A DNA stretch of 64,000 nucleotides from Thermoplasmata archaeon (GTDB taxonomy: Archaea; Thermoplasmatota; E2; DHVEG-1), in assembly GCA_014894395.1 (NCBI GenBank), contig JADBLO010000065.1, positions 3,840 through 67,839 of the forward strand. Reading direction: 5' to 3'. Positions 2,950 through 4,251 of this stretch are shown one piece after another. A program made the translations under genes and the position numbers. Position 1 is the first letter of the stretch. The number at the start of each line of letters is the position of its first letter. The notes under the pieces are model-generated. The model worked only from the letters and a program-made list of their open reading frames with translations. It was not told the DNA's origin and made no database searches.

Positions 2950-3024
2950 AAAAGGAATGGAGATAAGAGTTTCACATTTTCGTTGACCCGAACGTTTGAG
3001 ATTTTTTATTTTTGTTCTTTTGTA
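2950..3024 (+). promoter_or_regulatory. Structured 5' leader, copy 1 (upstream of tfb)
   Basis: Near-duplicate of 4140-4215. A purine-rich 5' arm pairs with a U-rich 3' arm around a TTCG..CGAA-closed loop. Confidence 0.7.
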
Positions 3025-3120
3025 CTAGTCTTACTGCTAAAGGCTGAAACGGTAAAAATCTATAAAAGGAACTATTGAATAATAAAATTCTGGAAAAAGA
3101 GATGTGGGGGTTGAATTGAT

Positions 3121-4056
3121 TTGGCGAAAAAAAATAAGCAACAAATAGAAGAAATTCTCAGCTGTCCTGAATGTGGGAGTGGACATCTGAGTAAGGATTA
3201 TTCTCGAGCAGAATTAGTCTGTTCTGGTTGTGGACTCGTTGTTGATGAAGATATCATTGACCATGGCCCGGAATGGCGTGCATTCGATAACGAACAACGG
3301 GAGAAACGGTCTCGAACAGGATCCCCCATGACATATACCATCCATGACAAAGGACTGAGTACGACCATAGGGTGGACCAACAGAGATGCGTACGGGAAAT
3401 CCATTCCAACAAAAAATCGGGCACAATTATATCGACTACGAAAATGGCAACGACGCGTTCGCATCAGCGATGCAACCGAACGGAATCTAGCACTTGCTCT
3501 TTCAGGAATCGACAGACTTGCGTCAGGCATGGGTCTTCCAAGAACCGTACGAGAAACCGCAGCAGTGATCTATCGAAAAGCAGCGTTAAAAAATTTAGTA
3601 CGAGGACGAAGCATCCAAGGGGTAACAGCCGCCTCATTATATGCAGCCTGCCGACAATGCCATGTACCACGGACACTGGACGAAATAAGTACGATCGCAC
3701 AGATGCCTCGAAAAGAAATTGGCAGAAACTATCGATATGTCTCCCGTGAACTCGAATTAAAATTAATGCCGACCGCACCAAAAGATTATATCTCACGGTT
3801 CTGCAGTGAGTTAAAACTCAGCAACAACGTTCAAGCAAAAACATTGGAAATACTGGGACATGCAGCAAATCAGGAGCTTACAAGCGGACGGGGCCCCACA
3901 GGACTTGCTGCCGCTTCCTTGTACATCTCGTCAGTTCTTTGTGGTGAACGCAGAACACAACGTGAGGTTGCAGAGATCGCAGGGGTCACTGAAGTGACGA
4001 TTCGAAATCGATACAAAGAACTCGCACAAAAACTGGATATTCGTATCGTGATGTAA
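3121..4056 (+). CDS. tfb: Transcription initiation factor IIB
   Basis: Zn ribbon CPECGS...CSGCG, B-reader GPEWRAF, two cyclin repeats, [19 protein letters not shown] start. Confidence 0.97.
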
Positions 4057-4100
4057 ATTTTTTATTCCAAGTAATGTAACAGAAACCTACGACCTTCCCC

Positions 4101-4118
4101 ATAAAAAACTATATAAAG
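4101..4118 (+). promoter_or_regulatory. BRE/TATA promoter for csp
   Basis: AAAAAAC-TATATAAAG, flanked by inverted repeat ACCTTCCC (4092-4099) / GGGAAGGT (4121-4128). Confidence 0.6.
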
Positions 4119-4139
4119 GTGGGAAGGTTATATCGCATC

Positions 4140-4215
4140 AAAAGGAATAGAAATAAGAGTTTCACAATTTCGTAAATTCGAATGTTCGAAATCTTTTTGT
4201 TTTTGTTCTTTTGTA
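4140..4215 (+). promoter_or_regulatory. Structured 5' leader, copy 2 (upstream of csp)
   Basis: Near-duplicate of 2950-3024 with the same long-hairpin potential. Confidence 0.7.
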
Positions 4216-4251
4216 AAAATCTAGATATAATCTAAGGAAAACGTGAATAAC

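Follow-up and report, generated by a model that had tools for sequence, protein, structure and literature searches.

The closest described relatives, in working terms, of the element reported here are the structured leaders of bacterial cold-shock (csp) genes. According to the accessible part of PMC12360218, cold closes the leaders of the Escherichia coli genes cspA, cspB and cspG, which masks the Rut/Rho site and frees the ribosome site, and accumulated Csp protein then reopens them so that Rho terminates transcription (PMC12360218, citing Delaleau 2024). In Staphylococcus aureus, the 5' untranslated region of cspA folds into a long hairpin whose left arm is rich in purines and whose right arm contains a U-stretch, and CspA binds the U-rich strand and melts the stem (as described in excerpts of PMC5815144). 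The cspB and cspC genes of the same species carry thermoswitches, namely paralogous leaders on paralogous csp genes, with a pyrimidine strand able to pair with the ribosome site and a U-rich Csp motif (PMC8034633, from the sections available). The Rfam family RF01766, the cspA thermoregulator or enterobacterial cold box, is likewise a conserved element at the 5' ends of csp mRNAs and is common to cold-shock genes. To our knowledge, very few cis-regulatory RNAs are known in archaea. According to a differential RNA sequencing (dRNA-seq) study of a cold-adapted methanogen, a cold box had not been found near cold-responsive promoters (PMC5378194). Here we describe a leader that occurs twice in a stretch of 64,000 nucleotides (nt) from a Thermoplasmata archaeon (GCA_014894395.1, contig JADBLO010000065.1, positions 3,840 to 67,839; hereafter the window), once before a cold-shock protein gene (csp) and once before a gene for a paralog of the general transcription factor TFB (tfb). 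We propose, with a probability of about 0.5, that this leader is an archaeal analogue of the bacterial Rho/Csp cold-shock switches, built around a masked U-tract stop signal.

The leader was noticed as a repeat of ~75 nt in an earlier note on this DNA, and the repeat is indeed present at 2950-3024 before tfb and at 4140-4215 before csp. The two copies are 84% identical over 76 nt by BLAST, and MAFFT together with a repeat finder paired 2950-3013 with 4140-4203 at 80% ungapped identity over 64 nt. Each has its own TATA box ~30 nt upstream, as had been claimed, and the motif ATATAAAGG is common to both boxes (2918-2927 and 4110-4119). Also in agreement with the earlier note, the differences between the copies fall in the apical loop, in internal loops, or are A/G exchanges opposite U. 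Each copy contains a long hairpin, P1, and the csp copy is followed by a small second one, P2. For the scores given below, a covariance model, R1, was built on 36 distinct copies from the genus, and the folding z-scores were obtained from 200 dinucleotide shuffles per copy. The features of the two copies are the following:

2911..2927, plus strand: promoter of the tfb copy, a sequence like the TFB recognition element (BRE), GCAAAAC, followed by the TATA box AATATAAAGG; read from the sequence, with ATATAAAGG aligned in both copies
2950..3022, plus strand: P1 hairpin of the tfb copy (helix 2951-3021); fold -21.9 kcal/mol, z -4.0; covariance model 95.2 bits
3002-3007, 3009-3013 and 3015-3021, plus strand: U6, U5 and UUCUUUU in the 3' arm of the tfb-copy P1
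4103..4119, plus strand: promoter of the csp copy, BRE-like AAAAAAC followed by the TATA box TATATAAAGG; from the sequence and the alignment of the copies
4140..4213, plus strand: P1 hairpin of the csp copy (helix 4141-4212); fold -20.8 kcal/mol, z -4.7; covariance model 88.6 bits
4194-4198, 4200-4204 and 4206-4212, plus strand: U5, U5 and UUCUUUU in the 3' arm of the csp-copy P1
4220..4237, plus strand: P2 hairpin, stem 4222-4226 with 4230-4234; from predicted folds and family covariation at the stem
4234..4241, plus strand: degenerate Shine-Dalgarno sequence of csp, AAGGAAAA, which is GAGGAGGUGA in most other genera; from the leader alignment
4252..4443, plus strand: cold-shock protein gene csp, 63 amino acids (aa), ATG at 4252; Pfam CSD 83.9 bits

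P1 is an imperfect hairpin of ~70 nt, purine-rich in its 5' arm and U-rich in its 3' arm; higher up, the stem becomes more complex, and a small apical stem follows. The predicted fold has ~30 base pairs in the window. None of the 200 shuffles folded as well as either plus-strand copy, and the reverse complements folded like shuffles (-5.7 and -7.3 kcal/mol, z 0.0 and -0.6). The view that both copies form one long hairpin is thus borne out, on the plus strand only. The same hairpin was found in all 36 distinct genus copies, and in every one of them the plus strand folded far better than the minus strand. As this asymmetry stems from G-U pairs, it points to a structure formed at the RNA level, or at least in a single strand. 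For comparisons across the family we used the 89 plus-strand copies scoring at least 46 bits, which come from 81 loci at the top of the hit list; they belong to related genomes and are not independent. When the two arms of these copies were shuffled separately with their composition kept, the mean energy of the P1 helix changed from -17.9 to -11.1 kcal/mol, with a median z of -3.1 and z below -2 in 72% of the copies. RNAalifold, applied to the MAFFT alignment of the 36 genus copies, recovered just 16 outer pairs with a covariation term near nil, and was set aside. Since the low-complexity arms slip in register, the majority single-sequence fold was imposed on the genus alignment instead.

Covariation was examined for both hairpins. 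For P1, in an alignment of 87 distinct family copies that was fitted to the model structure, 89.3% of the cells pair, compared with 87.1 ± 0.3% in shuffles (0/500 as high), changes on both sides occur at 14 pairs against 9.5 expected (3/500) and in 70 cells against 33, and the covariation score lies above the shuffles (0-3/500). Between copies, A and G replace each other in the purine arm, while U is kept in the 3' arm; one pair, for example, is AU 44 / GU 42. The constancy of the U arm suggests that the identity of U matters in its own right besides pairing.

P2 is a hairpin of 5-6 base pairs that follows P1 after a short spacer and adjoins the Shine-Dalgarno sequence, of which it covers a part. 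It reads CAGAC-N5-7-GUCUG in most genera and UAGAU...AUCUA at 4222-4234 in the window. For P2 we used 62 csp leaders, aligned by MAFFT without fitting to a structure, and 500 shuffles. In this alignment 81.8% of the cells pair against 74.7 ± 0.8% in shuffles (0/500), and changes on both sides occur in 45 cells against 19.6 expected (0/500), while slid registers pair in at most 52%. Single pairs show the exchange directly, one being CG 41 / UA 10 and another CG 23 / UA 18 / GC 3. The covariation of P2 is clear. In addition, two pyrimidines 5' of the P2 stem pair with the GG of the Shine-Dalgarno sequence in 92% of the cells. P2 persists to 45 °C in the predicted folds.

The leader is widespread in one family of the order, here called f1, which consists of uncultured Thermoplasmatota. 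By BLAST, the tfb copy was matched in 19 of 21 genomes from its own genus, many of which have 2-4 copies. In the order scan with R1 (E ≤ 0.01), 91 of 118 genomes were matched; 88 of them are from family f1, which has 107 genomes in the scan, and 38 of the 45 genera are represented. This conservation contradicts a private duplication, which the earlier note had named as a possible outcome of looking at relatives. The covariation expected there came out divided: it is seen in P2 and, at the family level, in P1, and is absent from P1 within the genus. In the class scan (E ≤ 0.001), 48 of 67 genomes of f1 were matched against 1 of 83 in nine other families (f4 0/25, f6 0/32, f10 0/13, f2 0/4, f8 0/4, f9 0/2, f5 0/1, f7 0/1 and f11 1/1). 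The single f11 genome has four copies, all before csp, and the order scan gave weak matches in 2 of 8 genomes of f2 (E 0.0005-0.003). Meanwhile, the CSD domain is common outside f1: among genomes of at least 80% completeness it was found in 12/12 of f10, 21/23 of f4, 5/6 of f2 and 9/23 of f6. The leader as modelled therefore belongs to family f1 and not simply to csp. It should be noted that R1 also matches the reverse strand at the same places with 28-37 bits; these matches are echoes, because the hairpin is near-palindromic, and were left out of all counts.

Comparison with Rfam 15, proposed in the earlier note as a check, identified no known family: the whole window gave 0 matches at the gathering score, RF01766 included, and at E ≤ 10 the segment 2900-4300 gave two minus-strand noise matches of 19 and 16 bits against cut-offs of 58 and 46. 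A literature search that left subscription journals mostly outside turned up the bacterial csp leaders and no description of an archaeal leader of this sort.

The genes behind the leader form a restricted set. Among the 89 copies, 65 stand directly before csp, 12 before tfb by script (a 13th, with an extended open reading frame (ORF), was missed by the script), 5 before a conserved zinc-ribbon ORF of 92-99 aa, and 1, in one relative, before a DEAD-box helicase gene. The 6 copies left unclassified by the script comprise this tfb with the extended ORF, one csp-like gene, one contig end and three cases with no nearby ORF. In 83/89 copies, P2, a Shine-Dalgarno sequence and a recognised gene come after P1, at a short and constant distance. 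Four weaker matches stand before csp (one) and the zinc-ribbon ORF (three).

In the genome of the window itself, R1 marks five sites, namely the two window copies and one each on contigs C20, C35 and C3. The C20 site precedes csp. At C35:1299-1843 (L215), a weak match of 31.5 bits is followed by a 64-codon cysteine-rich ORF without family and then by the third csp paralog. The leader thus stands before all 3 csp genes of this genome, yet before just 1 of its 3 TFB genes. The site at C3:920-1009 on the minus strand (L214) keeps P1, P2 and the Shine-Dalgarno sequence and has no start codon or ORF within ~180 nt; the next ORF, for a zinc-ribbon-like protein of 149 aa, starts ~290 nt downstream. 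Similar copies lacking an ORF occur in L109, L120 and L128, and such copies may be further cases of a decayed csp or stand-alone RNAs. Taken together, the alignments, folds and contexts indicate that the repeat copies are a conserved, strand-specific, structured 5' leader of a family-wide archaeal csp regulon. The earlier proposal of a structured leader shared by csp and a TFB paralog is in this respect upheld, and it extends to the DEAD-box helicase in the relative mentioned above.

Two further observations concern the regulon members. The zinc-ribbon protein (MVDCEEC...GYRHPALG...FLVCG) is found at L055:2082-2363 in relative G015 and in L117, L118, L121, L122, L101, L108 and L036; it matches no Pfam or NCBIfam family, and in several genera its gene recurs directly behind the leader. 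In nine of the examined loci (L085, L086, L087, L088, L093, L104, L116, L125 and L129), csp is followed by an Alba-type gene, labelled by its MSYVLA motif only, which suggests a csp-alba operon under the same leader.

The transcription start was placed with the TATA-to-start spacing that is usually seen in archaea. The TATA motif begins 29-33 nt 5' of the helix in 64/89 family copies, and with this spacing transcription would start at the foot of P1, at its first base or within a few nt of it. A scan for bacterial-type promoters and terminators found nothing at the element, and its counts were not above those in shuffles. RNA-library data were available as contigs from relatives that are 88-97% alike, from runs that held 5-9% of the sampled words. 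In two studies, contigs extend from P1 into csp (4140-4298 and 4114-4299); the P1 of tfb is covered by one contig (2955-3110), and another joins the 3' end of tfb to the csp leader (3955-4162). They are weakly indicative of read-through transcripts that include P1, and to the same modest degree they disagree with a transcription start downstream of the element, which the earlier note had listed as an observation that would count against it. Contigs end at 2955, at 4140 and, joined to an adapter, at 4148. These positions would agree with transcription starting at the foot of P1, but they do not coincide and cannot show it.

The 3' arm of P1 has the composition of an archaeal stop signal. All 89 copies carry at least two tracts of four or more U (U4+) in this arm, and 68/89 carry at least three; among 45-nt windows of the genome, 6.1% have at least two such tracts and 0.9% at least three. 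In Methanococcus, two U4 tracts gave the highest termination efficiency and the tightest binding of the termination factor aCPSF1, and archaeal terminators, which have at least two U4+ tracts within ~25 nt, need no hairpin (all from the accessible portion of PMC8716108). aCPSF1 itself is encoded in the genome at full length (TIGR03675, 952.8 bits; cut-off 580). By this rule, the tracts would act as a strong stop signal 50-72 nt into the leader mRNAs. The known terminators of this kind are found at 3' ends, whereas the leader tracts lie 50-72 nt after a promoter and are paired to a purine arm: in the predicted fold 87% of the U-tract bases are paired. Two features by which a switch of the Rho/Csp type can be recognised in a sequence, a stop signal inside the leader and an encoded termination factor, are therefore present, and the idea of an attenuator put forward in the earlier note gains support from them.

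The same arm contains a candidate binding site for Csp. TCTTT is present at the 3' base of P1 in 81/89 copies, and the longer TTCTTTT in 42/89, including both window copies. Bacillus subtilis CspB prefers GTCTTTG/T, with a C pocket at position 3, and TTCTTTT served as a high-affinity control (PMC1904285, in the excerpts available). The arm thus holds a ligand of the high-affinity CspB type, which Csp may bind. The Csp of the window has a canonical cold-shock domain and matches solved bacterial Csps, among them B. subtilis CspB (1csp, E 7e-15).

According to the proposed analogy, the U-rich arm would be both a latent archaeal stop signal, bound by aCPSF1, and a Csp site, UCUUUU. When P1 is folded, the U-tracts would be double-stranded and hidden and the 5' end of the mRNA protected, so that the polymerase would read through and the genes would be on. 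When free Csp is abundant, it would bind the U-rich strand and keep P1 open, the U-tracts would be exposed to termination or cleavage, and the genes would be off. The opening of P1 by Csp would then amount to negative feedback on csp. Cold would favour folded P1 directly, and also indirectly by titrating Csp onto bulk RNA, while warmth, like Csp binding, would unmask the stop signal. As the TFB paralog is a conserved operon member, such a switch would induce an alternative general transcription factor as well. The complete scheme, in which the purine arm hides a leader terminator, Csp and cold decide its fate, and the alternative TFB is switched on as well and triggers an archaeal cold-shock programme, is more tentative than the analogy itself and is offered as a possibility.

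Several points weigh against the proposed switch. The U-tracts at the 3' ends of csp genes are also paired in predicted folds, by 58% on average (n=38), so masking in the leader provides a weak contrast. UCUUU is likely to occur by chance in a U-rich arm; moreover, its C is the partner in the main G-C pair at the base of the helix, and its conservation may reflect pairing alone. In the cold, P2 is predicted to cover more of the Shine-Dalgarno sequence, not less, with UC 4220-4221 pairing with GG 4236-4237 at 15 °C and below. In silico, P1 has the lowest energy of all folds between 0 and 55 °C, with no competing structure; as it is predicted to be stable at all plausible growth temperatures, it would respond to temperature via kinetics or Csp rather than by melting. 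The fitting of the family alignment to the model structure and the kinship of its sequences inflate the shuffle test for P1. Within the genus, P1 covariation in the 36 copies does not go beyond column shuffles (88.6% against 88.3% of cells pairing; 113/500 reach this), because any purine pairs with U. For the same reason the A/G exchanges opposite U, which the earlier note had taken as evidence that pairing is kept, provide none: shuffled columns pair equally well. Finally, the RNA-library contigs may include DNA carry-over and cannot show where transcripts start or end.

The comparison with the bacterial systems shows likeness in layout and difference in parts. The Rho switches of E. coli and Salmonella cspA, cspB and cspG also consist of a leader on several cold-shock genes with a hidden stop signal, and reopening by Csp is proposed for them too; deaD, which encodes a DEAD-box helicase, is listed among the cold-regulated antitermination cases (PMC12360218, in its accessible part). 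Archaea, by contrast, have no Rho, and the signal in the leader would consist of U-tracts read by RNA polymerase and aCPSF1 rather than of a C-rich Rut site. There is no homology of sequence or structure, and the archaeal hairpin is predicted to lie at the very 5' end. The S. aureus cspA leader resembles P1 in its arms, and the melting by Csp described for it (PMC5815144, as excerpted) is proposed for P1 too; family f1 has an RNase III-type gene; the archaeal enzyme, unlike its counterpart, lacks a domain for binding double-stranded RNA (dsRNA), and the archaeal hairpin is longer, is predicted to be 5'-terminal, and has a U-arm that would double as a terminator signal. The S. aureus cspB and cspC thermoswitches share the paralogous leaders and the pyrimidine strand and are not homologous to P1, for which no competing fold is predicted. 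RF01766 belongs to another domain of life, has another fold, and matches neither at the gathering score nor at E ≤ 10. The leader would thus work like the bacterial csp leaders while being a member of none of these groups, and it would use archaeal signals, namely a TATA promoter, U-tracts and possibly aCPSF1.

The origin of the tfb copy can be read from its leader, whose surroundings have the following features:

3038..3104, plus strand: decayed csp 5' end, comprising the 3' strand of P2, the Shine-Dalgarno sequence, an ATG changed to ATA and approximately the first 15 codons; from local alignment
3106..3111, plus strand: Shine-Dalgarno-like GGGGGT of tfb; from the sequence, with GGAGGC or GGGGGT in relatives
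3121..4056, plus strand: TFB paralog of 311 aa that starts with TTG, where relative G002 has ATG; Pfam TFIIB repeat 156.5 bits, zinc ribbon 66.4 bits

Of the 3 TFB genes in the genome, the one in the window alone has a leader. Its leader (3025-3125) was aligned locally with the leader and csp of relative G082, which belongs to another genus, and gave a score of 45, against 23.9 ± 3.7 and a maximum of 38 in 300 shuffles. In this remnant, the csp start ATGAAAGGAAC has turned into ATAAAAGGAAC. The segments GTAAAAATCTA, shared by both leaders, AAAAGGAA at 3064-3071 and AAGGAA at 4234-4239, to which the earlier note had drawn attention, are all present in the sequence. The interpretation of the first two as parts of a switch has to be given up for the tfb leader: AAAAGGAA, regarded as a second pairing partner, is the decayed csp start, and GTAAAAATCTA, judged by the alignment, is the old Shine-Dalgarno spacer region of the lost csp.

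In other genera, the order leader-csp-tfb, with tfb 50-100 nt after csp, was found in ten genomes of seven genera (four seen in sequence, six by coordinates), and in one further genus the leader stands directly before tfb with an MNGK remnant left. The remnant and this gene order indicate that the ancestral unit was a csp-tfb operon. From these sequences, csp has decayed in this genus while its leader was kept and now drives the TFB paralog directly, and the duplication is a by-product of this decay. The tfb copy is kept in 13/13 of the tfb-linked copies examined in the genus.

The best surviving alternative to a masked stop signal is that P1 serves as the substrate of a double-strand-specific nuclease. 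RNase III would cut P1 and leave a shorter mRNA headed by P2 that is stabler or better translated, and Csp would melt the hairpin and block this processing. The ~30 base pairs of P1 would be available to such an enzyme, and in S. aureus cspA the hairpin with the U-stretch in its right arm, which CspA binds and melts, is processed by RNase III (PMC5815144, available part). RNase III is unusual in archaea, and family f1 carries it: in the genome of the window there is a gene (C38:253-720, minus strand, L236) for an RNase III catalytic domain of 155 aa that has the ERLEFLGD signature but no dsRNA-binding domain, and the domain occurs in 93/107 f1 genomes against 0/8, 0/2, 0/13, 1/25, 6/32 and 2/4 in other families of the class and in none of four archaeal control genomes. 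Since this co-occurrence concerns one clade, it counts as effectively one event, and the f11 genome with four leaders has no RNase III match, at a completeness of 71%. RNase III without a dsRNA-binding domain is known mainly for the maturation of ribosomal RNA, which counts against a role here, and no cleavage site is visible in the data. We consider it unlikely.

Slightly less probable still is the model of the earlier note, a thermoswitch with two folds that needs no protein, in which the 3' arm is either held in P1 (open) or paired with the Shine-Dalgarno sequence and start (locked). The complementarity that it requires exists, as UUCUUUU can pair with the Shine-Dalgarno AAGGAA and with AAAGGAA of csp codons 2-4, and the pairing of the pyrimidines before P2 with the Shine-Dalgarno GG in 92% of the cells would suit it as well. 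In the S. aureus switch, the long hairpin of the open form similarly sequesters the sequence that pairs with the ribosome-binding site (anti-RBS; PMC8034633, sections available). P1, at ~-21 kcal/mol, nevertheless remains the minimum-energy fold over the whole range of 0-55 °C with no competitor predicted, and the second partner in the tfb leader is the decayed csp start, which is not conserved among the tfb leaders of the genus. Constraints of other kinds act on the Shine-Dalgarno sequence and the first codons, which puts the alternative pairing beyond a covariation test. A simple melting thermometer, also implied by the term thermoswitch, was considered and is unlikely, as P1 is predicted to be folded up to 55 °C.

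It is improbable that P1 and its promoter constitute a small RNA gene, whose product would be a hairpin RNA of ~60-75 nt ending at the U-tracts and acting in trans, for example as a Csp sponge, with the downstream genes expressed by leak-through. The layout of promoter, hairpin and U-tract would suit such a gene, and 3/89 copies as well as the C3 copy of this genome have no recognisable ORF within ~180 nt. Those copies have kept P2 and the Shine-Dalgarno sequence, though, and look like more csp decay; P2, a Shine-Dalgarno sequence and a recognised gene follow at a fixed short distance in 83/89 copies, and the RNA-library contigs bridge P1 into csp. A recent neutral promoter duplication, or a DNA-level operator in the initially transcribed region, in either case without RNA function, is very improbable: gene decay did produce the tfb copy as a by-product, but the element is kept in 38/45 genera of the order scanned and in 13/13 tfb-linked genus copies, its folding energy is strongly strand-asymmetric through G-U pairs, which exist only in RNA or single strands, and both P2 and P1 show covariation.

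The surroundings of the two leaders contain the following genes. An IS200-like Y1 transposase (2339-2785, Pfam 110.4 bits), followed by G+C-rich inverted repeats at ~2777-2815, lies directly 5' of the tfb promoter. Downstream of csp is one further feature of interest:

4569..5756, plus strand: DEAD-box RNA helicase, 3' of csp; Pfam DEAD 177.1 bits, Helicase_C 111.5 bits

A T7 run and a TATA-like box between csp and the helicase gene indicate that the helicase probably has its own promoter here. It is followed by an ordinary gene for an ABCE1/RLI-type protein (5916-7703; Fer4_RLI and two ABC domains), which together with csp, the helicase and TFB makes up an RNA- and translation-centred neighbourhood. 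Elsewhere in the window, a 44-nt motif occurs in three copies (11340-11383, 35067-35110 and 38188-38231) with the core TGTTATAAAAT.(A/G)TACAATGGGG and 70-80% identity, and may be a promoter or leader that other genes share.

The leader described here represents a well-populated RNA family with a defined gene set, comprising csp paralogs, a DEAD-box helicase, a zinc-ribbon protein and a TFB paralog, and it makes archaeal cold-shock regulation and conditional termination directly testable. The conservation of an operon that joins csp to tfb points to an alternative basal transcription factor linked to temperature. The results also suggest that conditional premature termination, known from bacteria, may exist in the archaeal system of U-tracts and aCPSF1 as well. 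If this is true, the leader would be the first case described of conditional attenuation through aCPSF1-dependent termination.

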